Below are positions 9,434 through 56,354 of a stretch of DNA of 64,000 nt, one piece after another. How positions within the stretch are numbered: the stretch's first letter is position 1; each line of letters begins with the position of its first letter. This stretch comes from Pseudomonadota bacterium. GTDB taxonomy: Bacteria > UBA10199 > 2-02-FULL-44-16 > JAAZCA01. The position numbers and the translations under genes were made by a program. Where the stretch lies: the NCBI GenBank assembly GCA_016927275.1, contig JAFGMW010000116.1:1456-65455 (forward strand), written 5' to 3'. The notes under the pieces are model-generated. The model searched no databases and was not told where the DNA came from. It was given only the letters and a program-made list of their open reading frames with translations.

Positions 9434-10863
9434 CTGTCGTCCACCGTCCCGTCGTACCCGTCGCAGTTGAGCTGATCCAGCTCCTGCCTCCAGTTCCTGA
9501 AGTGCCCCTTGGGGTCCAGGATCATGCTTATCAGCGTGCCGACGCCAGGGAAGTGGCGCATGAATCCGGCGACATCCTGCTTCGTGACATCATTTCCGCC
9601 CGCGCCCCTGGAGTCGTTGCGATAACTGGTGCTGTCCGGCTGACTCGAGCGGCTGTGCGTTTCTTCGCCGCTATCGTCCAGCATCGCACTCCTGATGAGG
9701 ACCACGCTCTTGTCCTCCATTATCCTGAAGAACAGCTTGGTGATCGAAAATTCATGGGTGACGGAGTCTATTCCGAACGCGCTCACGGTGTCGCCTATAG
9801 CCGCGGGTATCCTGACCCTCACCGTCCCGTCGGGGCCGGCGGCGTTGCTGCTGCCCGCTCTCGATCTCAGATTCTCGAGGCTGGCTATGAAATAGGGCCA
9901 GTCCGCCACGCATCGAAGATCAGCCCTCGACCTCACGTAGCATCCGTAGAGGTCGAAGATGAAGTGCTTGCCGTCAAAAGACGCCCTGTAATTGACGCGG
10001 TCTTTTCTCAGAGGGCCGGGGAGGTCTATCTGCGGAGACGCCCCTGCGTTGCCCACGTATTTTTCCAGGAGATCGTCAAACGAGGGTATGCTGGCGTATC
10101 TTGATGAGCCGTCATTTTTGAACCGAGGGTCCTCCTCGTACGGCACCGGATCGTCCAGCCACTTCGGGTAATCGGGGCTGAAGGCGGAGAGGTCGGGCGC
10201 CTTTTTGGGGGCCTTTGCGGTCCTGCCGGGCCTTGTTTTCTTTGGCGCAGGGATGTCCGGCAGCGACGGCTCGTCCGGCGCGACGCATACGCCCCCTGCC
10301 TCAGGGTCGCTTTTCAGGTTGCGCGCGTCGAGGCACAGCTCGGTGCACCTCTGGCTGTCTATGTACTGCCTTATGTAACTCTTGAACTGCTTGAAGTCCT
10401 TGAACCGCATGAGGTCGGCTTCGACCCTCTTCACGTCGTTGAACTCCTTTTCGGAAAGCTGCCCGTCCGTCTTGCCCTCATTCGCCACGGCGTCGATCTT
10501 CGTGAGGATCGAATAGAGAGAGATGCCGCCGAGCATCACGCACCTGGGGACGCTCCTGATGTCGAGCGGGGACTCGTTCACCGCTATGCCCGACTCCTCC
10601 TGACAGATGGGGTTGAAGCGGTTGTTCTCGATGTAACTTTCGACATAATCCCTGAACCGAAAGAAGCCTTCGAACGCTGAGAGGTCCCTCCAGCCGACGA
10701 GCCTCAGGCGCAGGGCATCGTCGTAGTTCGCGCGGGTGAACTTGCCGTCAGGGGCATTTCCCCTCGCCTTGTCCGCTTCGCGGTCCAGCCCCCTCACGAA
10801 GTCCTTGAGGTCCGCAAGGCAATTCGGGATGCTGCCCACCGATATGTGATCAAAAGCGCTCAT
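9385..10863 (-). CDS. hypothetical protein, 492 aa
   Basis: Long ORF with balanced composition, same strand as its neighbours, and stop 10 nt after the upstream gene. No recognisable motif. Confidence 0.55.
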   Translation of the reverse strand: MSAFDHISVGSIPNCLADLKDFVRGLDREADKARGNAPDGKFTRANYDDALRLRLVGWRDLSAFEGFFRFRDYVESYIENNRFNPICQEESGIAVNESPLDIRSVPRCVMLGGISLYSILTKIDAVANEGKTDGQLSEKEFNDVKRVEADLMRFKDFKQFKSYIRQYIDSQRCTELCLDARNLKSDPEAGGVCVAPDEPSLPDIPAPKKTRPGRTAKAPKKAPDLSAFSPDYPKWLDDPVPYEEDPRFKNDGSSRYASIPSFDDLLEKYVGNAGASPQIDLPGPLRKDRVNYRASFDGKHFIFDLYGCYVRSRADLRCVADWPYFIASLENLRSRAGSSNAAGPDGTVRVRIPAAIGDTVSAFGIDSVTHEFSITKLFFRIMEDKSVVLIRSAMLDDSGEETHSRSSQPDSTSYRNDSRGAGGNDVTKQDVAGFMRHFPGVGTLISMILDPKGHFRNWRQELDQLNCDGYDGTVDDRCNRLKNGVAGSNLER

Positions 10864-16852: not shown

Positions 16853-16864
16853 AAAATAAAACCA

Positions 16865-16937
16865 GGCTGAGGCTGAGGTTTAGGTTGAGTGACCTTATAA
16901 CTTAACCTAAACCTTAACCTAAACCTAAACCTAAACC
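16865..16937. repeat. hexanucleotide tandem-repeat hairpin element, (GGCTGA/GGTTTA)n facing (TAAACC/TTAACC)n
   Basis: Left arm ggctgaggctgaggtttaggttgag and right arm cttaacctaaaccttaacctaaacctaaacctaaacc are mutually near-complementary hexamer arrays. Located between the DsbA-like gene and serS. Confidence 0.7.
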
Positions 16938-16942
16938 TTCAA

Positions 16943-21793: not shown

Positions 21794-21846
21794 ATGTACA
21801 ACAAGGCTGAGGTTAAGGCTTAGGCTAAGTGGTGCTCAACCTCAAC
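21794..21846. repeat. hexamer tandem-repeat hairpin, (GGCTGA/GGTTAA/GGCTAA)n facing (CAACCT)3, between convergent genes
   Basis: ggctgaggttaaggcttaggctaag ... ctcaacctcaacctcaacctg. Sits between the protease stop (21731) and the glnA stop (21858) and likely acts as a bidirectional terminator. Confidence 0.65.
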
Positions 21847-21857
21847 CTCAACCTGAT

Positions 21858-23726: not shown

Positions 23727-23805
23727 TGGTCGGGGTGAGAGGATTTGAACCTCCGACCTCACGGTCCCGAACCGTGCGCTCTAAACCAAGCTGAGCTACA
23801 CCCCG
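23727..23805 (-). tRNA. tRNA-Pro (anticodon CGG)
   Basis: The reverse complement cggggtgtagctcagcttggtttagagcgcacggttcgggaccgtgaggtcggaggttcaaatcctctcaccccgacca folds as a cloverleaf. Acceptor stem CGGGGUG/CACCCCG, anticodon loop UUCGGGA, 3' CCA encoded. Confidence 0.85.
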
Positions 23806-23930
23806 ACAAAAGAGAGACGCATCTTTTCAAGTGCGTGAGGTCTAGTTTAAACGGCAGGTACTGTCAACGGCGCTTTGCCCTGCCCGATCGTCTTGTATTT
23901 ATAAGAATATTATAATAGAAGGACTATTCA

Positions 23931-24947
23931 ATGGCCATGGGGGGTAAAAAAATCAAGGTTAAGGTTAAGGCTAAGGCTAAGGCTAAGGCTAAGGTTAAGC
24001 CTAAGCCTAAGCCTAAGCCTAAACTTAAGCCTAAACCTAAGCCTAAACCTAAGCCTAAACCTAAACCTCAAGTTAAGGCCAAATTGCCTGAGTGGCCGCC
24101 CCCCCTTGAGATCTACTCTTCAACGGATCCGCTCTCTCTGATGCGCAAGGTGCTGGCCCGCTGCGACCAGGCTTTTCTATCGCGCCAGGTCTCATATTCG
24201 CTCTCCACCTCAGAGGGGCTGGGGGAGGTGTGGGTGGACGAGGAGGGGATATCCTCTGCGATGGACACCCTTCTCATGCACCTTGTTTCGCGTTCCCCTC
24301 GCAAATCGGTGATCTCCGTGCAGCTTTGCCCGTTCGCCATGCACAGCGGCTCAGGCGTTCAGATCGCCTTTGAGGCCATCGACAGGTTGATCAGGGACGT
24401 GGACCACAAGGCGTTCATGGCCTCGATCTTCGACGGGGGGGCGGACCAGGAGACCGGCGTCTCGCTCGCCGCCCTGAGGGAGAGGGTGATGGCGCAGCAC
24501 GGAAGGCTCTGGGCGGAGCTGCCGGGCGGGAACAGGACCCTGTTCAAGATAGTGCTCCCCTCGACGAGGGACGTGGCCAGGCAGGCCCTTCTCGGCCAGC
24601 GCACCTTCAGGTGCGACATCGCCATCACCAACTACCCGCTCGTGAGAAAGCGCTTCGGCCTGATGAAGGGCAGGCACCTAGTGGAGCAGGTGGAGCGCTA
24701 CGTGAAATCGCTGGTGAGGTTCCCTATCGACATGGTGACCGCGGACCTCGACGCAGGCAGCATCACCGCGATCTACGAGGCCCAGCCGGGGGCCGCGGAG
24801 TCGGTCTACTCCCGCATATCCAAGAGGCTGGGGCAGGAGACCTTCCACATCGGCAAAAGACCGGTGGAGCTCCTCTTCAGGTACGAGCTCAAGGGCGGCG
24901 CCGGCCATTCTGCGCCATCGGCCGGCCGAAACCGGGGGAAAGGCTAG
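23931..24947 (+). CDS. hypothetical protein with Lys-rich (KV/KA/KP)n N-terminal tail and a degenerate histidine-kinase-like ATPase (HATPase_c-like) domain
   Basis: Residues 7-50 (KIKVKVKAKAKAKAKVKPKPKPKPKLKPKPKPKPKPKPKP) are encoded by GGTTAA/GGCTAA/GCCTAA hexamer repeats. Downstream, ETGVSLAALRERVMAQHGRLWAELPGGNRTLFKIVLP resembles the HATPase G2 box. Confidence 0.5.
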   Translation: MAMGGKKIKVKVKAKAKAKAKVKPKPKPKPKLKPKPKPKPKPKPKPQVKAKLPEWPPPLEIYSSTDPLSLMRKVLARCDQAFLSRQVSYSLSTSEGLGEVWVDEEGISSAMDTLLMHLVSRSPRKSVISVQLCPFAMHSGSGVQIAFEAIDRLIRDVDHKAFMASIFDGGADQETGVSLAALRERVMAQHGRLWAELPGGNRTLFKIVLPSTRDVARQALLGQRTFRCDIAITNYPLVRKRFGLMKGRHLVEQVERYVKSLVRFPIDMVTADLDAGSITAIYEAQPGAAESVYSRISKRLGQETFHIGKRPVELLFRYELKGGAGHSAPSAGRNRGKG

Positions 24948-24950
24948 GGC

Positions 24951-26660
24951 ATGGACTGGCAGGGTGCGGCAGAGGCGTTGTGGCGCGTGCGATGGTGGTT
25001 CGTGCCGGTGTTTGCGGCGCTCTATCTCGTGCCGCTTTTTCGTGTGGCGGGAATGGCCTTCGAGGGCGGCGGCAGCGCCCTCATGCGCGTCAACCGCCTC
25101 TTCGGCCTGTGGGAGCACGCGGTCTTCATCCCGAGGGACACGTTGGCGACCGCGTATCTCGCGGGCGGGTTCCTCTGGCACCTGTTCCTGGCGCTGGAGC
25201 TGGCGAGCCCGGAGCACGCCGCTGTCGCGGCCGCGGCCCTGGCGCTCATGTCGGCGGGCTGGGCCCAGCGCCACTTCCGCAGGCAGGGGCACATGGCCCT
25301 GGCCGAGTTCGCGAGCCGAAACCCGACGGTCCACCCGCAGGAGTTCTTCGACCACCTCTTTTGCGTGTCGGGCGCGATCAGGCACAGGCTGCCCCAATCC
25401 CCGGCCAGGGTGATAGACCCCGCGCACCTCGATTTCCGAAACCACGGAAAGGGAGCGAGGCTCCGGTGGCCGACGCTCGCGTGCGGCGCGTGGAGCACCG
25501 CGTGGCTGGCGAAACTCCTCGTGTCGTGCGGCGACATGAAGAACCAAAGGTGGCTCGCCAGGTTCGCGGACGCGATGGCGCTCGTCTGGGCCTCGAGGCT
25601 CGCACAGCTCATGCGCGCCGAGGTCTCGGTCGAGGGCGCGGACAGGCTCGCCGCGCACGCCGGGCCGCAGATGCTTCTCTACACACACGCGAGCTTCGTG
25701 GATTTCGCGCTGGCCCCGCTGGTGCCGGCGTCCATGGCCGCTCAGCCCGGCGGCCCAAGAAAGGGCTGTGTCCCGTCGTTTCTCATTGCGAAGGACCACT
25801 TCCGCGACAACCCCCTCTACTACCGGCTACTTGGCATCGGCAGGGCCGCGGAGGCGCTCGGCATGATCTTCGTTGAGCGGAGAGGGCGTTCATCGCCCGC
25901 AAGGGCCAGGGGCGTGGTGTGGCAGGCGACCGGGAAGATGGTGGACGAGGGGGCGATGCTCGGCATCTATCCCCAGGGCACGCGCGCAACGCCTTGCACG
26001 GGGGTCGAGGGCGAGAGGCTCGACTCCGCGTATTACACCGTGGGCGAGCCGGAGAGGATAAAGCGCGACGGGGCGCACCTGAAAAGGGGCGCGGCATTCA
26101 TCGCGGTCGAGGCGGCGATGGGGCTTGCTGCCGCAGGGGAGCGGGAGGGGGTCCGCATCGTCCCGGTCGCCATAAAGGGGAGCGGGATCGCCTGCCCGAG
26201 GGGGAGCGCCAGGATCATGTCTGACGTCCGCATGAGGCTCGTCATCGGCGAGCCGATCCGCATCCTGGCCAGTGATGTCGCGGGGCTCAAGTCGCCCGAT
26301 GAGGGCGGCCCGCATAACAAGGGCGAGGAGCGCTACTTCGAGTTCGCGGACCATCTGCACCGGAGGATAGACGTCTCGCTAAAGGAGGCGTACGGGGTGC
26401 ACGCGGTTCTGGAGAGGCGGTTCTTCGAGGACGTAAGGGGCCTGCTGGACCACAACGAGATCGAGGAGGTGGCGCTCGCGGTCAAGCCGTGGCGCGGTGA
26501 CGACTTCCTCTTCCACGCGGTGCTCGACGCGATCTACTGTGCGCCCCCTTCCAAGTGGCGCAGGTTTCTTGGGGAGCTGGTGCACCTCATGCTCAACTTC
26601 GCCACGCGCGAGGAGATGCTCGCATTCAAGGGGCGCGTGGTGGACGGGATGTCGATGTGA
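24951..26660 (+). CDS. membrane acyltransferase, lysophospholipid acyltransferase (PlsC-like) family, with long N-terminal membrane domain
   Basis: HX4D motif (YTHASFVDF) and an FPEGTR-like motif (IYPQGTR). Hydrophobic N-terminal ~200 aa. Starts 4 nt after the previous gene. Confidence 0.65.
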   Translation: MDWQGAAEALWRVRWWFVPVFAALYLVPLFRVAGMAFEGGGSALMRVNRLFGLWEHAVFIPRDTLATAYLAGGFLWHLFLALELASPEHAAVAAAALALMSAGWAQRHFRRQGHMALAEFASRNPTVHPQEFFDHLFCVSGAIRHRLPQSPARVIDPAHLDFRNHGKGARLRWPTLACGAWSTAWLAKLLVSCGDMKNQRWLARFADAMALVWASRLAQLMRAEVSVEGADRLAAHAGPQMLLYTHASFVDFALAPLVPASMAAQPGGPRKGCVPSFLIAKDHFRDNPLYYRLLGIGRAAEALGMIFVERRGRSSPARARGVVWQATGKMVDEGAMLGIYPQGTRATPCTGVEGERLDSAYYTVGEPERIKRDGAHLKRGAAFIAVEAAMGLAAAGEREGVRIVPVAIKGSGIACPRGSARIMSDVRMRLVIGEPIRILASDVAGLKSPDEGGPHNKGEERYFEFADHLHRRIDVSLKEAYGVHAVLERRFFEDVRGLLDHNEIEEVALAVKPWRGDDFLFHAVLDAIYCAPPSKWRRFLGELVHLMLNFATREEMLAFKGRVVDGMSM

Positions 26661-26675
26661 GGAACCTTTCCTGAC

Positions 26676-28250
26676 CTATCTCAGCGGTCCCCGCAGGCCC
26701 ATCATCAACGAGGCCCCTCCGTTGAGCGGGGGGATGAACGGACCCCGGTTTGCGACTGCGCCGAGAGGGCTCAATGCGGGCGCGAAGGGCAGGTTCGACG
26801 GGCGGACCGGCGGTGCGGCATCCCGTCCTTCGGGGTCGCGGTTGTCGTCGCCCGACGGGATCTCGATCACCATCGACCCGTGACGATACTCTATCTTTCC
26901 GCCGACCCTCGCAGCGAGCGTGTCCAGCTCCGCCCTGCCGTGGCTGGCCGGTCCCAGCGCCGCAAAGGCGCTGCGGCCTTCGGTCAGATCGGTCACCACG
27001 AGAGTCCTCCGGTCAGGCCTCCAGTCCACGTCCACGCGGGCAGGCGTCACGGGCCGCAACGACGAGGCAGGCGCGGACCCGTCGTACGCATACGATGCAC
27101 CCATGAGGAAGACGAGCCTGGCGGCCAGCCGCTTAAGATGCCTGTTGTTCCTCGCGGTTATCAGGGCGTCATGGGGGGCGCTCACCCTGACGTCGAGCCA
27201 TGGCCGCGCCTCGCGTTCCGCGCCGAAGCTCCTCATGAGCGAGAGCGGGCAGAATATCCCGCGGCAGCTGTCTGCCGTCTCGGCGTTCCTGAAGATGTTG
27301 ACCAGCGCAGTCAAGGCGGACGGATTCCCGGCGAGGTCAATCCAGGGGAGCCTGTCCAGGAAGTGGTCCATGAGCCCGGCGACGAATGCGCTCTCCCACC
27401 TGCCGCCGAGCGCCTCGTTTTTTCGAAATCCCTTGAATGCGCCGAAGAGCGCTTTCAGCGGCATGGCGTCCAAGCCCACTGACCTCGCCGTCGAGGCATT
27501 GTCGATCCCCTCCGGCCTCAGGAATGCGCGCTCCAGCCTGAACAACAGTTTCTCCGCCATGAGATATAGGTCGGAGGAGAGGCTCTCCCATGCCTGGAGG
27601 TAGTCCGCCGCGTTTGTGGTGGCCGCCACCCTCCTGCTGAACTGCTCGATCAGCGAAACGGACCACAGCTTGCTGCCATAGCCCTCGATCATCACCTCGT
27701 AGTTGTTGACGCGCTCCACCCTCAACGCGCCGTCGGCGGTGGTCGCCTCGTCGTCGAAGGGGAACTCATCGCCTTCGACGACGGCCTTGAAGTCGAGATG
27801 GGCGAGCAGCGGCGCATTGGTGCGCATGGCCGATGAAACTGTGAACACCGCGAGCGCGGCGGAGTCGATCTCGTCCTCTTCGAGCTGGTGCCTGTCGGCG
27901 CCGATGATCATGCGGCCGTGCGGGGTGTGGGCCACGAATCCGCCGGTCGGGAGGTCCTCGAGCCACAGGAGGTCGCGGTCTGCCCTGAGGATGTCTTCAA
28001 ACGATCTGGTTATCGCCTCGGCGGATATGCCGTCTGAAAACAGCAGCGGGAAGATCGAGCGCCCGGCGCCCGCCCCGCTGGGGAAGATGTCATTGAAGAG
28101 GGCGCTCACGGCGTTGTCGTAGGAATCCTCGTTCCCGCGCGCGAGGGCGACCACATTGCGCCACTTGTCCTCGAGCGGCTCTATCTCCCTGAGCAGGTCG
28201 AGCACCGTCGCTTTTCTCATTTCCACCGGGTGCGCCAATTTTCCCTCCAT
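26676..28250 (-). CDS. hypothetical protein, 524 aa
   Basis: Long ORF with balanced composition, downstream of the PilZ gene on the same strand. No recognisable motif. Confidence 0.5.
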   Translation of the reverse strand: MEGKLAHPVEMRKATVLDLLREIEPLEDKWRNVVALARGNEDSYDNAVSALFNDIFPSGAGAGRSIFPLLFSDGISAEAITRSFEDILRADRDLLWLEDLPTGGFVAHTPHGRMIIGADRHQLEEDEIDSAALAVFTVSSAMRTNAPLLAHLDFKAVVEGDEFPFDDEATTADGALRVERVNNYEVMIEGYGSKLWSVSLIEQFSRRVAATTNAADYLQAWESLSSDLYLMAEKLLFRLERAFLRPEGIDNASTARSVGLDAMPLKALFGAFKGFRKNEALGGRWESAFVAGLMDHFLDRLPWIDLAGNPSALTALVNIFRNAETADSCRGIFCPLSLMRSFGAEREARPWLDVRVSAPHDALITARNNRHLKRLAARLVFLMGASYAYDGSAPASSLRPVTPARVDVDWRPDRRTLVVTDLTEGRSAFAALGPASHGRAELDTLAARVGGKIEYRHGSMVIEIPSGDDNRDPEGRDAAPPVRPSNLPFAPALSPLGAVANRGPFIPPLNGGASLMMGLRGPLR

Positions 28251-28376
28251 CCATCAGAAAGCGCCGACAAGCTTTTATCGGCAGGAGGGGAAATTAGTTG
28301 CTATATATTATGCTTTTTACCGGGCTGATGGATAAGGGGCGGTCTGATGTCTAACAGTTTGTAATAAAAGGACAAA

Positions 28377-28763
28377 TCAATTGGAACGGGTCTTGAGGAA
28401 TCGCTCGATCGCCTTGTGCGAGAGGGAGAAGAGGTTCGTGAACCGGATCCCGATGCCGGTCTCGGTTCCGCTCTCCTCCACGCGGGTTATGTTGCCGCGC
28501 ATGGCGACGTCGCGGTCCTTGTCTGAGAGGTCGAAGATCACCTCGATCGGCCTGTTGTTGGAGATGCACTGCTGATCCGCCCTGATGTACATGCCGCCGC
28601 AGCTTATGTTGAGGGCCGTGGCAGGGATGATCCGGCCCCTGTGCCTGAGTATCACCGGGAGCTCGATCCCCAATCTCTGATGGCGGCGTCTCTCTTCCAT
28701 TTGGCCCTCATTATCGGCGAAGGTATTTTTGGGTGCAACCGTTTTCACCCCATGTATCGGCAT
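28377..28763 (-). CDS. PilZ-domain (c-di-GMP-binding) protein
   Basis: RRxxxR motif (ERRRHQRL) and D/NxSxxG motif (NISCGGMYI) at the spacing characteristic of PilZ. 128 aa. Confidence 0.7.
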   Translation of the reverse strand: MPIHGVKTVAPKNTFADNEGQMEERRRHQRLGIELPVILRHRGRIIPATALNISCGGMYIRADQQCISNNRPIEVIFDLSDKDRDVAMRGNITRVEESGTETGIGIRFTNLFSLSHKAIERFLKTRSN

Positions 28764-28799
28764 GCCTCCAAATAAGTTGCGTGACTTCTTCGACCAGAA

Positions 28800-28857
28800 A
28801 CTATCAGCTTGTTACTGGTATTCTTTTACCAGAAACTATCAGCTTGTTTCTGGTAAT
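28800..28857. repeat. 27-nt palindromic element ACCAGAAACTATCAGCTTGTTTCTGGT with an adjacent degenerate copy, each followed by a T-rich tract
   Basis: The same 27-mer recurs at 35484-35510. 9-bp arms ACCAGAAAC/GTTTCTGGT with a 9-nt loop. On the plus strand it looks like an intrinsic terminator, though no plus-strand gene lies upstream. Confidence 0.6.
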
Positions 28858-28898
28858 TTGCGGTTGCAAAGGCTGTAAAAACCGATATTTACGGCACC

Positions 28899-29918
28899 AT
28901 GGGTGAAAGGGTAACGGTCATCGGCGCAGGCTCCTGGGGGACGGCCCTGGCGAAGTTGCTCGCTGAGAAGGGCCTCGATGTCGCGCTCTGGGCGCACGAG
29001 CCCGAGGTCGCGGAGGGGATAAACCGAAAGCGCCGAAACCCCCTCTATCTCGCAGAGGTGACGCTGCCCGAGGGCATCGCAGCCACCGACCGACTGGAGG
29101 GCGCTGTGGCAGGCGCCTCTGTGGTCGTCTCGGCGGTGCCCTCGCACGCGCTGCGCAGGATCTGGCAGGCCCTTGCCTCCGAGCTGCCGGATGACGCCCT
29201 GGTGGTAAGCTGCACCAAGGGCATCGAGGCGGAGGGACTGAAGCTCATGAGCCAGGTGCTCGCCGACTGCCTTCCGTCGCATCCGGCGAAAAACCGCGTG
29301 GTGCTCTCGGGCCCGTCGTTCGCCGCCGAGGTCGCGAGGGGCCTTCCCACCTCGGTGGTCGTCGCGGGGACCGACGCGGGCGTCACGGCGCGCGTCCAGG
29401 AGATCTTCCGCACGCACGCGTTCCTCACATTCACCGGCGACGACGTGATAGGCGTGGAGGTGGGCGGCGCGGTCAAGAACGTCATCGCCATCGCGGCCGG
29501 GGTCTCAGACGGACTCGCCCTCGGCCACAACACTCGCGCCGCGATCATCACGCGCGGCCTCTACGAGATGATAAAGATCGGGCAAGCGCTCGGCGCCAAT
29601 CCCATCACCTTCGCGGGGCTCTCCGGCATCGGAGACCTCGTGCTCACCTGCACCGCGAACCTCTCGCGCAACCACACCCTCGGCTTCGACCTCGGCCGGG
29701 GCAGGGCGCTTTCCGACCTCAGGCGCGGCATGCGCATGGCCGTGGAGGGGCTGCCCACCGCTGAGGCGGTCCACAGGCTCGCCGCGAAGCACGGCCTCAA
29801 CATCCCCATCTGCGACGCGATGTATCGAATCCTCTACGAGGGGCTGGAGCCGAGGATGGCGGTCGAGGAGCTCTGCAGCATGCCGCTCGCCCTCGAACTC
29901 GGCGCACTTTTACACTGA
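28899..29918 (+). CDS. gpsA: NAD(P)H-dependent glycerol-3-phosphate dehydrogenase
   Basis: N-terminal GAGSWGTALA Rossmann motif. Colinear with GpsA over 339 aa. Confidence 0.95.
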   Translation: MGERVTVIGAGSWGTALAKLLAEKGLDVALWAHEPEVAEGINRKRRNPLYLAEVTLPEGIAATDRLEGAVAGASVVVSAVPSHALRRIWQALASELPDDALVVSCTKGIEAEGLKLMSQVLADCLPSHPAKNRVVLSGPSFAAEVARGLPTSVVVAGTDAGVTARVQEIFRTHAFLTFTGDDVIGVEVGGAVKNVIAIAAGVSDGLALGHNTRAAIITRGLYEMIKIGQALGANPITFAGLSGIGDLVLTCTANLSRNHTLGFDLGRGRALSDLRRGMRMAVEGLPTAEAVHRLAAKHGLNIPICDAMYRILYEGLEPRMAVEELCSMPLALELGALLH

Positions 29919-30418: not shown

Positions 30419-30724
30419 GTGTTGACCGGGGGGCGGATTGGTTATAAAGGCGGGGGCATGGCGAAGAAGAAGGCCAGGGGGCGCAGGAAACCGGCGGGCG
30501 GTTTCGATCTCGAGTTCTCGATCGAGGAGGACGGCCTGCTCCGCGGGCTCATGGACTCCAAGGGCAAGAAGGTCGAGGTCATAGCCTTCGGCATCGTCTA
30601 CTCGGGGGTCTTGGAGAGCGTGGACCTCGACGGCGGCCAGATCGTGATCGCCGACGGAGAGGACCGCGCGATGATCGAGATCGAGCGCATAGAGTCGCTC
30701 ACCCCCCTCGAAAACTACCTATGA
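30419..30724 (+). CDS. small hypothetical protein (101 aa, or 88 aa from MAKKKARG)
   Basis: ORF with basic N-terminus. Its stop overlaps the next start (ATGA at 30721-30724). Confidence 0.35.
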   Translation: MLTGGRIGYKGGGMAKKKARGRRKPAGGFDLEFSIEEDGLLRGLMDSKGKKVEVIAFGIVYSGVLESVDLDGGQIVIADGEDRAMIEIERIESLTPLENYL

Positions 30725-31092
30725 AGCGGGCCGCGGCGGTCTCACTTGCACTGTTTGTCATCGCATCCTCTCTCTGCGCGCTGGCGGGGGAGCAAGGAGG
30801 GGCCGCATCCGCGCGGGCGGAGGAGTCGGGGTTCGCGATCATTATCCTCGGCACGCGCAGCGCGGCCGACGTGAGGGTCATCGAGAAGAACCTGCGCTCG
30901 CTCCCGTACGTATCGCTCATGGTGCCCACGGTCATGAGCCAGCAGCACCTCGAGTTCCAGGGCAGGATGAGCGCCTCCGACGAGGCCATGGTCGCGGACG
31001 TGGCAGGGCTTGCGCAGGACCGCTACGAAGTGAAGGCCCGCCGCGAGCACAGGCGGGGGCTGGTGATAACGCTGAGAAAAATCAAGGGATGA
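30721..31092 (+). CDS. small secreted hypothetical protein, 123 aa
   Basis: N-terminal signal peptide MKRAAAVSLALFVIASSLCALA. Translationally coupled to the preceding ORF. Confidence 0.4.
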   Translation: MKRAAAVSLALFVIASSLCALAGEQGGAASARAEESGFAIIILGTRSAADVRVIEKNLRSLPYVSLMVPTVMSQQHLEFQGRMSASDEAMVADVAGLAQDRYEVKARREHRRGLVITLRKIKG

Positions 31093-31160
31093 GAGGCTGA
31101 GAGGCTGAGAAGCTGAGAGGCTGAGAAGCTGAGAGGCTGAGAAGCTGAGAAGCTGAGAAG
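31088..31160. repeat. (GAGARGCT)9 octamer tandem repeat
   Basis: gagaggctgagaggctgagaagctgag... begins at the stop codon of the upstream small gene. Every unit contains TGA, so stops occur in all three frames. Confidence 0.7.
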
Positions 31161-31172
31161 CAAAGAAAAGGC

Positions 31173-31210: not shown

Positions 31211-33433
31211 TCACCATACTCCGCCCATGGTTAAAGTGAGCGCGGAGAAGGCGTCTCCAGGGCCGTATGCCCGCAGCAGCTCGTCGCCGATGTCGAAGAC
31301 GTATATCGCGGCGCCCATTTCGAGCAGACGGCTGCCGCTTCGGACAGCTGCGATGAGCAGTTCAGGCTGTCCGTCGTTGAACATGTCCCCTGGCGTGAAC
31401 ATGAGGGCGCCCAGCATCTGGTCGTTTTCGAACAGCTTTGGCGATGCGGCGCCTGTGAAGATCGCGTTGGCCTGTTCCGCGCCCCTGTCGTCCCATAATT
31501 TGCTCGATCCCATCCCTTCCTCGCCCAGGTAGAGGTAGACCTTTCCGCGGTAGATTCTGTAGATGTCGTCCCCGACCTCCACCGTAGCCGGGAGCATCAT
31601 CGGGGCGCCCACGACGAGATCTGCGCGGCCGTCGTTGTTGTAGTCGTCGGCGATGATGTTGAACATGTTGAATATTGCGTATCCGTCCCCGGTCCTCTCG
31701 GCTGAAATCTTCGCGTGCAGGTCCTCCTCCGCTTCGCTGAGCGGCACTAGCGAGAGGCTGGCCGGCCAGGGGCTGCGGCCTGACAATATGTGCACCTCGG
31801 CCGGGTCGTACTCCGGGAGTATCGCCTTTACAGGCACCGAGGGGTTGACCTCGTTGGTAATGCCCACGATCAGGTCGTCGAGCGCCATGGCCGTGTCCTC
31901 GCGGGCGTCGCCGTCGAGGTTCGCGATGAAGACGGTCTGGATCATGTCTGGATAGAGCCCGCTGCTGCCCACGGCGGTGATAACCGAATCGGGATTGTCG
32001 ATCACGCCGCCCTCGACGGTGCCCTTGAATATCTTCACCACGTTCTTCTCGAGCGAGCTGTCGTAGATGACGACCGCTATGTCGTTCAGCGGCTTGCCTG
32101 TCTCAGGGTTCATGTCGCCGTCGAGGTTGCCCCACCCGATCGACGGGTAGTAGGGGAATTGCATCAGTCCCAGGGGCAGGTCGAGGCCCTCGGTCCACTG
32201 CCGGTAAATCGCCTGCGACATGGGGAATCCCTGGATCGGTATCACCACGTCCGCGTCCGCCGTGGAGATCCTGCCGGCGAATTTGCCCGGCCCGCCGAAG
32301 AATATCGTTATGTAGGTGTAGTAAGAGAAAATCAGAGAGGAGCCGGCCTCAATCTTGCCGGCATCGAGGTCGGGCTGCTCCATGGTGGTCATGACAAACG
32401 GGAGATCGGCCTCGCCGTCGCCGTTGAAGTCGAAGACCCTGCCCTCGGGGCGGATGAGCGGGAACGCGATCACGAGGCTTGAGTCCAGCTCGCCGTCGTC
32501 GTCGTCATCTGCCACGAATTCAGCCACAGGGCCGGCGGCCGGGTCCTCGAAGTATAGATAGCTCCAGCGCGTGTCCTTGATCTCCGACCCGCCGGGATCC
32601 GGGACTGGAACCGGAACCCCACCCCCGCCTCCGGAAGTTTTCCCGACCGAGACCGCTTCCGCAGGGGGAGGTTTTACAGGTTTCGCGGTGAAGATGTCCT
32701 GGCAGGCGTCCGGAGTTCCCACGCGGCCAACCAGGTATTTCTGATAATCCACCTGCTGGAACTGAGGGATGGTGATGCTGAAGGCAGGGGAGCCGACTTT
32801 GCATCCCTCAGCGTCAAAGGGGTCCATGTAGAACCGCCCGGACTCCGCTCCAGTGAGCGCGATCTGCTCCAGCATGCCCATCAGGTCGATGATGTTGTCC
32901 TCTTCGGAAGGCGGTATGAGCGATTCTTCGCCTATTATGAAGCTCATTCCCATAAGGGCCAGGAGGAAGTCGGCGTTTTTGCCGTCCACGAGCGACATCG
33001 GATTGGGCGGAGAATCCACTGCATACTCGCCGTCCGGGACTGCGGCGCCGTCCGCGAACGCAAGCCCGCTCCAGGCCACCCTGTATCTTATGCTGTGCCT
33101 GGTCCTGCCGAAGAACTTCGCCCAGGTGCCGTCGCTTGCCATTATCATGCGGTTTATGGCGACCGGGATTCCGGTCAGATCCTCCGCGATGGAGAAATTG
33201 GAGGCGTCAACGGCCCTGGATGGCGAGGTCGTCAGCGATACAGGGGCGTCGAAGCGGAGTATGACGGCCTTTCCGTCGAACTCGGCGTACGTGCCGGCCG
33301 GGGTCGTGTCGTCGCCTCCGTCTCCGCCGCCGTTATCGGTATCGACCGAACCCAGCTCGCCGCCGCCGCAGGCAGCGAACAGCGTCAGGGCGAATGCCGC
33401 TCCGACCACGCAAGCGAGTCTTGATATCTTCAT
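31211..33433 (-). CDS. FG-GAP/integrin-alpha-like repeat lipoprotein
   Basis: Lipoprotein signal MKISRLACVVGAAFALTLFAAC. Repeated Ca-binding DxDxDG-type motifs (FNGDGEADL, NLDGDARED, NNDGRADLVVGAP). Confidence 0.7.
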   Translation of the reverse strand: MKISRLACVVGAAFALTLFAACGGGELGSVDTDNGGGDGGDDTTPAGTYAEFDGKAVILRFDAPVSLTTSPSRAVDASNFSIAEDLTGIPVAINRMIMASDGTWAKFFGRTRHSIRYRVAWSGLAFADGAAVPDGEYAVDSPPNPMSLVDGKNADFLLALMGMSFIIGEESLIPPSEEDNIIDLMGMLEQIALTGAESGRFYMDPFDAEGCKVGSPAFSITIPQFQQVDYQKYLVGRVGTPDACQDIFTAKPVKPPPAEAVSVGKTSGGGGGVPVPVPDPGGSEIKDTRWSYLYFEDPAAGPVAEFVADDDDDGELDSSLVIAFPLIRPEGRVFDFNGDGEADLPFVMTTMEQPDLDAGKIEAGSSLIFSYYTYITIFFGGPGKFAGRISTADADVVIPIQGFPMSQAIYRQWTEGLDLPLGLMQFPYYPSIGWGNLDGDMNPETGKPLNDIAVVIYDSSLEKNVVKIFKGTVEGGVIDNPDSVITAVGSSGLYPDMIQTVFIANLDGDAREDTAMALDDLIVGITNEVNPSVPVKAILPEYDPAEVHILSGRSPWPASLSLVPLSEAEEDLHAKISAERTGDGYAIFNMFNIIADDYNNDGRADLVVGAPMMLPATVEVGDDIYRIYRGKVYLYLGEEGMGSSKLWDDRGAEQANAIFTGAASPKLFENDQMLGALMFTPGDMFNDGQPELLIAAVRSGSRLLEMGAAIYVFDIGDELLRAYGPGDAFSALTLTMGGVW

Positions 33434-33478
33434 GACCGCCTCCTGTCCTCTCATCCAACCGTTCCGATTTCAAAAATC

Positions 33479-56282: not shown

Positions 56283-56330
56283 CTTGCGCAGCGGTTGAGG
56301 CTGAGGTTAAGGTTGAGGCTGAGGCTGAGG
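56283..56330. repeat. (GGTTGA/GGCTGA/GGTTAA)8 hexamer tandem repeat in the divergent priA/elbB promoter region
   Basis: ggttgaggctgaggttaaggttgaggctgaggctgaggctgaggcttg. Confidence 0.7.
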
Positions 56331-56354
56331 CTGAGGCTTGAAGGGGGGATGGGA

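Follow-up and report, generated by a model that had tools for sequence, protein, structure and literature searches.

Lysine-rich repeat tails are well known among bacterial proteins. The N-terminal basic tail of FrzCD from Myxococcus xanthus binds the nucleoid without regard to sequence (PMC5716589), DdbA of Streptomyces carries an H1-like domain at its N-terminus (PMC3643593), AlgP associates with polyphosphate (polyP) granules (PMC9239181) and Hc2 of Chlamydia varies in size through its lysine-rich repeats (PMC2848022). Lysine-rich tails have been tested in mycobacterial Ku (PAKKA repeats; PMC3553676) and in Streptomyces TopA (lysine repeats; PMC5714199). Degenerate GGDEF domains and degenerate histidine-kinase (HK) domains are each equally familiar. 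Here we describe a gene from a 64,000-nt stretch of contig JAFGMW010000116.1 (the window, by which we mean the whole stretch of DNA that was analysed). The gene (23931..24947, + strand, an open reading frame with an ATG start) encodes a 338-aa protein that runs from a polybasic tail through a degenerate HK catalytic and ATP-binding (CA) domain into a degenerate GGDEF-like domain, and it is followed at once by the gene of a distinct acyltransferase. The combination of pseudo-CA/pseudo-GGDEF protein, acyltransferase partner and a tail whose coding sequence is one copy, in frame, of a palindromic hexamer array dispersed in the genome appears to be undescribed, and in the literature searches made we found no description of the CA/GGDEF-like family or of its acyltransferase pairing.

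The tails of AlgP (KPAA), Hc2, HupB and Ku (PAKKA), TopA and DdbA resemble that of the 338-aa protein in being K/A/P-rich, disordered tandem tracts encoded by a DNA repeat, and in DdbA, as here, the tail is N-terminal on a regulatory domain. In the window the bearer of the tail is no DNA-transaction protein; it is a pseudo-kinase/pseudo-cyclase with a lipid acyltransferase as its partner. The repeat unit is strictly a K-x dipeptide, set by a hexamer, and the DNA is an inverted array that also occurs as intergenic hairpins. FrzCD offers a second parallel, a basic tail at the N-terminus of a signalling-type protein of the cytoplasm in a related bacterial group, but it is a chemoreceptor whose signalling pathway is active, and it has no tandem repeat in its tail and no homology to the window protein.

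The folded domains and their family

An AlphaFold2 (AF2) model built on 8 homologues (mean confidence, pLDDT, 75) has disordered residues 1-57 followed by two folded domains. The first of these (residues 63-212; 24117..24566, + strand) matches Pfam HATPase_c at E=0.15 and 12.9 bits (cut-off 26.4), over positions 3-110 of the 111 in the profile. Foldseek against the PDB retrieves HK853, CusS, ZraS, VanS and CckA at E~1e-10 for this domain, among them 4u7n and 5uht (HK853), with E 3.5e-10, ~155 columns and a root mean square deviation (rmsd) of ~3 Å. As modelled, the first domain has the Bergerat fold of a CA domain. Pfam gives no HisKA match in the 338-aa protein, which has no H-box and no His at all within residues 50-100; the canonical distant relatives P0045 and P0056 carry HELKNPL and HELRTPL, respectively. 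When the protein is aligned with canonical members, the N-box NLLSNAIKF falls on TLLMHLVSR, with H117 in place of the Mg-binding Asn, the G1 motif DxGxG falls on D151-R-L-I, the glycines being lost, and the G2 motif GxGLGL is reduced to ETGVSL.

The second domain (residues 224-322; 24600..24896, + strand) is a truncated, degenerate GGDEF-like domain of the cyclase fold, with ~100 residues compared with ~160 for a full domain. A profile of the C-terminal domain matches solved diguanylate cyclases in the PDB (DosC, E=2.6e-4). Modelled separately by AF2, the domain reaches a pLDDT of 91, and the top 12 Foldseek matches of that model are all GGDEF domains (TM-score on the query, TMq, 0.67-0.78; rmsd ~2 Å; E 1e-5 to 2e-4). 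In the hidden Markov model alignment to DosC the GGDEF motif becomes L273-D-A-G-S277 (LDAGS) and the metal-binding Asp of DxD becomes A231. Pfam finds no GGDEF match in the window protein, and at E<=10 it does so in 9 of 29 family members, the best at 4.9e-5. An earlier note on this DNA, made from the sequence alone, had proposed an HK-type ATPase-like domain lacking an H-box; the fold search and the missing HisKA agree with this, but the GGDEF-like domain was overlooked, so that the single C-terminal domain of the note is, by profile and fold searches, really two.

The two folds are themselves intact, D151, G191 and part of the G2 box are kept, and R263, D267 and R295 are invariant throughout the family, as might be expected if the protein were a working GHKL ATPase/kinase or diguanylate cyclase whose motifs are unusual. 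Against such an activity stands the loss of the phospho-acceptor His together with HisKA, of the Mg-binding N-box Asn and of the G1 glycines, and in the second domain the LDAGS motif, the Asp to Ala change and the truncation. We regard an active enzyme as very improbable; the alignments point to a pseudoenzyme in which both domains are catalytically degenerate. The family-invariant residues (G191, P210, R263, D267 and R295) suggest a conserved interaction or ligand site. R263-x-P-x-D267 (RxxxD) is itself family-invariant, with R263 one residue before the canonical Arg when compared with 5euh and a 1-residue gap needed for the comparison with DosC. A canonical cyclic di-GMP I-site was considered and is not demonstrably present, the motif being RxPxD instead of RxxD.

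The family is rare, with 8 homologues in 5.8 billion clustered proteins, and a profile search of 1.84 billion representatives returns ~39 clusters at E<1e-10 that share the same 300-390-aa architecture. The exact 338-aa protein is absent from a collection of 15 billion proteins. No member has a functional annotation, the sole named record being a "hypothetical protein", and relatives in reference genomes come from metagenome-assembled genomes labelled Myxococcales, Deltaproteobacteria or "bacterium", with the exception of a marginal 45-residue match in a Sphingomonas isolate. Beyond the ~39 clusters lie ordinary sensor kinases, several of which align across both domains, the second being labelled GGDEF by Pfam; the distant HisKA-HATPase_c-GGDEF proteins align over profile positions 59-321. 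Such sensors (P0056, P0066, P0121 and P0132) have the same direct fusion of CA to GGDEF-like domain, are homologous over both domains and also have degenerate GGDEF motifs. They retain sensor domains, the H-box of HisKA and canonical N, G1 and G2 boxes. None of these survives in the window protein, which has acquired a polybasic tail and a partner acyltransferase.

The acyltransferase partner and the neighbourhood

The gene downstream (24951..26660, + strand) starts 3 nt past the stop codon of the 338-aa gene and encodes a 569-aa LPLAT/GPAT-family acyltransferase (PF01553, E=3.6e-9) with an N-terminal hydrophobic anchor, which bears out the large membrane acyltransferase that had been placed immediately downstream from the sequence alone. 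It keeps the HX4D motif and blocks II-IV (HASFVD at 246, FVER at 306, QGTR at 342 and VPVAI at 404), and its hydrophobic segment spans residues 15-38. A sequence search of the PDB with this acyltransferase gave nothing useful.

We examined 13 loci of the family (the window, L001, L002, L005, L007, L009, L010, L011, L013, L015, L018, L019 and L020), and in 13 of 13 an acyltransferase of ~550-577 aa lies directly downstream of the family member. The gap between the two is mostly 0-6 nt, rising to 18 nt in L007 and 260 nt in L010, and in L019 the frames overlap by 1 base. The pairing persists in L019, at 28% identity and in a quite different neighbourhood, and in L020, at 43% identity and again in an otherwise different neighbourhood. 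One acyltransferase, 25% identical, was found without the partner gene. Across these loci the gene pair forms an obligate two-gene module, which is probably translationally coupled. This constant pairing is the strongest functional clue, and we infer from it that the 338-aa pseudoenzyme serves the acyltransferase as a regulatory or scaffolding subunit.

In the close clade the neighbourhood as a whole is conserved, in the order glnA-glnB-tRNA-Pro, the gene and its acyltransferase, a protein of about 520 aa and a PilZ gene, and gpsA. The protein that adjoins the acyltransferase throughout this clade (in the window 524 aa, 26676-28250, - strand) has no Pfam or NCBIfam match, and L002 holds two tandem paralogues of it. 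It is followed by a gene at 28377-28763 for a PilZ-domain protein of the TIGR02266 type (a Myxococcus paralogue family). Further on, an 8-nt repeat, TGAGAAGC, is found in 9 tandem copies (period 16 in 4.5 copies) at 31090-31161, between open reading frames at 30721-31092 (+ strand) and 31211-33454 (- strand).

On the other side of the gene pair, an intergenic element, GGTCTAGTTTAAACGGCAGGTACTGTCAACGG, at 23840-23872 is kept in 4 orthologous loci. Its reverse complement holds TTGACA-17 nt-TAGACC some 35 nt ahead of tRNA-Pro(CGG), which lies on the minus strand at 23727-23805, and the element is probably the promoter of this tRNA. In L002, of the P0005 lineage, the spacer between glnB and the gene (9480-9990) has a tRNA-Pro as well as several partial, degenerate copies of tRNA-Pro fragments, repeated in blocks "gacctcacggac..." and "gccccgaccaaaacagacgcc", which suggests local duplication or insertion at the tRNA.

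The hexamer array and the lysine-rich tail

The 338-aa open reading frame is a genuine gene. Its ATG at 23931 lies 7 nt 3' of a Shine-Dalgarno (SD)-like AGAAGGA (23917..23923, + strand), the start block TTATAATAGAAGGA...ATGGC is kept at 4 orthologous loci, and the first 58 residues translate as MAMGGKKIKVKVKAKAKAKAKVKPKPKPKPKLKPKPKPKPKPKPKPQVKAKLPEWPPP. An assembly artefact was considered and rejected, as an independent Logan contig, L001, is identical (0 mismatches) to window 23970-29492 across the shared stretch; L001 begins inside the array, so that a single assembly gives the copy number in its first third, the first arm. Just 5' of the SD a palindromic element, ATTATAAT (23909-23937), is conserved among orthologues, and it scores as a minus-strand sigma-70-like site (TGGCCA-17-TATAAT). 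A sigma-70 scan gave no convincing promoter on the + strand, where the nearest -35-like hexamer, TTGTAT, lies just 12 nt from TATAAT.

Tandem Repeats Finder places a period-6 array of ~17 copies with 87% matches at 23955-24068, within the open reading frame, and the proposal in the earlier note that in-frame hexamers are read as (KV/KA/KP)n is upheld. Frame 1 of the array gives K-x dipeptides; frame 2, which is also open, gives RL/SL; frame 3 is closed by a TAA in each unit. The + arm, (AAGGYT)n, at 23955..24002 is read K-V/K-A. The - arm, at 23998..24068, is (AGGYTT)n on the minus strand, which on the + strand gives AAG/AAA-CCT, or K-P; together the two arms make a long imperfect hairpin. Since AGGCT is the reverse complement of AGCCT, the + arm yields AAG-GCT/GTT (K-A, K-V) and the - arm AAG/AAA-CCT (K-P), and it is where the DNA palindrome changes strand that the protein passes from (KA)n to (KP)n. 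As RNA, 23950-24075 folds with -47.6 kcal/mol (z = -3.65), and 0 of 200 shuffles fold equally well; an Rfam search returned tRNA-Pro and otherwise only sub-threshold matches to miRNA precursors, which merely mirror the hairpin.

The resulting polybasic tail (residues K6-K51; 23946..24083, + strand) contains 23 Lys and 0 Asp/Glu in translation, and the 65 residues that precede the first helix comprise 23 K, 15 P, 6 A, 0 D and 2 E. It is disordered in the AF2 model, with pLDDT below 50-53 across residues 1-57, and ends before a W55-P-P-P linker (WPP; 24093..24104, + strand) that is conserved in P0005, P0006, P0007, P0009, P0010 and L011. The K/A/P-rich composition, the disorder and the period-6 DNA repeat agree with the comparison to H1- and AlgP-type tracts made in the earlier note. 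Its other suggestion, a TonB-like spacer, does not fit. The tail shares a Lys-Pro run, probably extended and polyproline-II-like, with the (EP)n(KP)n spacer of TonB, but the window protein, which is predicted to be cytoplasmic, lacks the membrane anchor, the (EP)n block, the TonB C-terminal domain and an export signal, and a periplasmic spacer of this kind was rejected, only the KP run being present without a hydrophobic N-terminal segment or a TonB domain.

A basic segment precedes the first conserved helix in 14 of the 14 closest orthologue clusters, with a net charge of +7 to +32, and these polybasic tails are mostly encoded by ordinary non-repetitive DNA, which makes it very probable, judging from the sequences compared, that the tail of the 338-aa protein is translated and under selection for its charge. 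In the P0003 lineage (L005 and L013) the tail is ordinary non-repetitive coding DNA with a high GC content at third codon positions (GC3), and window 23917-23935 aligns with the SD and the "ATGGC" of its ATG start. The bases of the array point the same way. At the N position, 6 of 6 + arm units of the tail have A, compared with 2 of 12 + arm units of the intergenic arrays, where the base is mostly G (Fisher p=0.0015), and 9 of 9 - arm units of the tail have T, so that every unit opens with a Lys codon, AAG or AAA, and none with TAG, TAA or GAG.

A second protein of the lineage appears to have undergone the same process. At L002 18116-18460 a small conserved protein 3' of gpsA reads MARKVKKAKAKAKAKAKAKAEVKAEVKAEVKK... 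from an AAGGCT/GAGGTT array, which occupies the stretch from the start codon to the conserved body and gives a 30-residue (KA)n(EVKA)n tail; of the possible start codons, ATG was the one looked for within this stretch, and none is present in frame. The orthologue in the window (~30458-30724) has a short basic N-terminus with only MAKKKARGRRKPAGG at this place. By this comparison L002 18116-18460 would be a second case of an array that expanded in frame within a Lys-rich N-terminus, and we read the Lys-rich N-termini of the lineage as permissive sites at which hexamer arrays may expand in frame.

The array might instead be a non-coding, regulatory or terminator-like element of the 5' untranslated region (UTR), with translation starting at TTG 24084 or ATG 24141 and no lysine tail. 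Arrays of this family are intergenic at three other loci, where they form strong hairpins, and the one at 56292-56338 lies directly upstream of a gene start. TTG 24084 has AAGG 5 nt upstream, and the gene caller began the identical Logan copy at M71, though that contig starts within the array. The codon usage of the tract is also highly atypical, with a GC3 of 0.41 compared with 0.87 in the other genes of the window, and 20 of 20 Ala, Pro, Val and Leu codons of the repeat end in T, codons that make up 4-10% of usage elsewhere in the window. On the other hand, orthologues in which unremarkable coding DNA encodes the tail share the SD and the start at ATG 23931, each of the 14 close clusters has a basic tail, the array stands in the Lys frame with a Lys-giving base in every unit, unlike the intergenic copies, and the equivalent array in L002 18116-18460 lies between a start codon and a conserved body with no ATG between. 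The WPP motif and the first helix sit between the array and the next ATG (M71), so that a start at M71 would remove the motif and part of the first conserved helix, and with them conserved residues. A tail-less product is therefore unlikely, and we retain ATG 23931 as the probable start. Two family members, P0001 (L001 172-978) and P0161, were called short from a downstream Met, P0161 being a strain variant called from an internal Met, and the tail is systematically under-annotated by automatic gene calls.

Dispersed copies and length variation of the array

The array is not private to this gene, a point not made in the earlier note. The pattern AGGYTNAGGYTNAGGYT, with <=1 mismatch, has 31 matches in the window, at 4 loci, where 0.01 are expected. 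At 16864..16938 an inverted array lies between a dsbA-like gene and serS, has a hairpin z of -4.6 on the transcribed (-) strand and is followed, shortly ahead of serS, by a U-rich run, GGUUUUAUUUU; L002 has an array at the same position (L002 2071-2145; hairpin z = -7.7). A second inverted array, at 21804..21854, is intergenic between the convergent S8 peptidase and glnA genes (hairpin z = -6.5, - strand). The tail array itself (23956-24068, + arm then - arm; z = -3.65) is the third, and the fourth is a one-armed (GAGGYT)n array at 56292..56338 (+ strand), intergenic and immediately preceding the SD and start codon of a DJ-1/PfpI-family gene. Three of the 4 window loci, the tail included, thus have a + strand array followed by a - strand array and form a long imperfect hairpin, and a further (AGGYTN)n array is found at L007 3384-3406.

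The (AGGYTN)n arrays look like a lineage-specific family of REP- or terminator-like elements. As with REPs and other intergenic hairpin repeats they are dispersed, short and hairpin-forming, and some are at terminator-like positions; they differ in that the arms are themselves hexamer microsatellites and that one copy is in frame in a coding region and very probably translated. The array of the L002 orthologue has a + arm only (z = -1.27), and because this orthologue is without a significant hairpin the hairpin is probably incidental to protein function and probably not a conserved feature of the gene. It could affect translation or DNA stability. That the palindromic array has a dual role, supplying terminator-like hairpins between genes and, in frame, generating and rapidly resizing polycationic tails on at least 2 proteins, one of them in an undescribed pseudo-kinase/pseudo-cyclase family that partners an acyltransferase, is a speculative proposal that we put forward with more doubt than belief. 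If it were true, the mRNA hairpin could also couple structure to translation of the operon.

The expectation that tail length changes by gain or loss of repeat units is borne out in nature by P0157 and P0005. Their DNA is 100% identical apart from an indel of exactly 48 bp (16 aa), which corresponds to a single copy of a 48-bp higher-order repeat; P0005 is found on five contigs and P0157 on two. This variation parallels the changes in repeat number that alter the size of Hc2. An exact-match scan of JGI metagenome contigs with a 22-mer flanking the array found nothing, and a protein-pattern scan of metagenomes found only 5 loci.

The earlier note also raised phase variation, which would make the array a contingency locus at which slippage toggles the gene and, by polarity, the acyltransferase. 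The gene does have, at its 5' end, a simple-sequence repeat that is long and fairly homogeneous, and an orthologue is polymorphic in length. However, the unit is 6 nt, so that its gain or loss cannot shift the frame, and the sole natural variant found, of 48 bp, is in frame. Nor do the neighbouring G6 and A7 runs (23939-23952) lend themselves to a switch, being short, and the G run is absent at the equivalent position in both orthologues that were read. Phase variation is thus not supported, and we give it hardly any credence.

The arrangement described here, in its structural and genomic parts taken as a whole, is one that we hold with considerable confidence. The explanation that we favour on balance, with its mechanism of tethering and regulation included, is as follows. 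The 338-aa protein, in which a degenerate CA domain is fused directly to a degenerate GGDEF-like domain, would be cytoplasmic, catalytically dead and derived from signalling proteins, and would act as a regulatory or scaffolding subunit of the membrane-anchored LPLAT-family acyltransferase. Its disordered, polycationic N-terminal tail, free to vary in sequence while its charge is conserved in the clade, may tether the protein electrostatically, and independently of sequence, to a polyanionic surface, the KP half probably forming an extended, rigid spacer. Slippage or recombination would shift the length of the tail by at least 2 residues with the frame kept, and so tune reach and charge rather than turn anything on or off. 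The data show the layout of the protein, the identity of its domains with their missing catalytic motifs, the gene pairing, the conserved tail charge, the in-frame length polymorphism and the dispersed repeat family; we infer translation of the tail in this organism, its target and the regulatory role.

The target is the more tentative part. We suggest the anionic inner leaflet beside the acyltransferase, at somewhat short of an even chance. The tail could instead anchor the protein, as an H1- or AlgP-like binder, to nucleoid DNA or polyP granules, which differs from the tether just described in target only. The K/A/P composition without aromatics fits the tested bacterial tails of AlgP, Ku (PAKKA), TopA, DdbA and FrzCD, and orthologue tails such as MPKKAKTKRAKPRKAAGK... 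look H1-like. The sole invariant genomic partner is a membrane-anchored lipid acyltransferase, though, and no DNA-related domain or neighbour is conserved; anchoring to DNA or polyP is the main alternative, and we think it somewhat less likely than the membrane.

Several observations weigh against the tethered regulatory subunit that we prefer. The tail lacks the aromatic and hydrophobic residues usual in membrane-binding polybasic motifs, its K/A/P composition being closer to that of DNA- and polyP-binding tails. It is missing in more distant family members, which indicates that the tail is accessory and not essential to core function, and its translation is judged by comparison of sequences. 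The in-frame TTG 24084, which has TAAGG ahead of it, could initiate a protein without the tail, beginning at PEWPPP, and the similar array at 56292-56338 sits in a 5' UTR, close in front of the start codon. The invariant R263, D267 and R295 hint at a retained ligand site. Finally, the 48-bp variant comes from metagenome assemblies in which collapse of repeats is conceivable, yet the k of 141 exceeds the 96-bp duplicated stretch.

These data define an unannotated family of CA and GGDEF-like proteins tied to a distinct acyltransferase of ~570 aa in uncultured delta-proteobacterial or myxococcal lineages, and they carry a warning for annotation, as gene callers tend to cut such genes to a downstream Met (P0001 and P0161). 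The tail would be an example of a genomic simple-sequence/hairpin element co-opted as coding DNA for a disordered polycationic segment, the length of which is polymorphic in nature. For the family itself, the gene pair is a candidate case in which signalling domains may have been recycled as a regulatory subunit of lipid synthesis.

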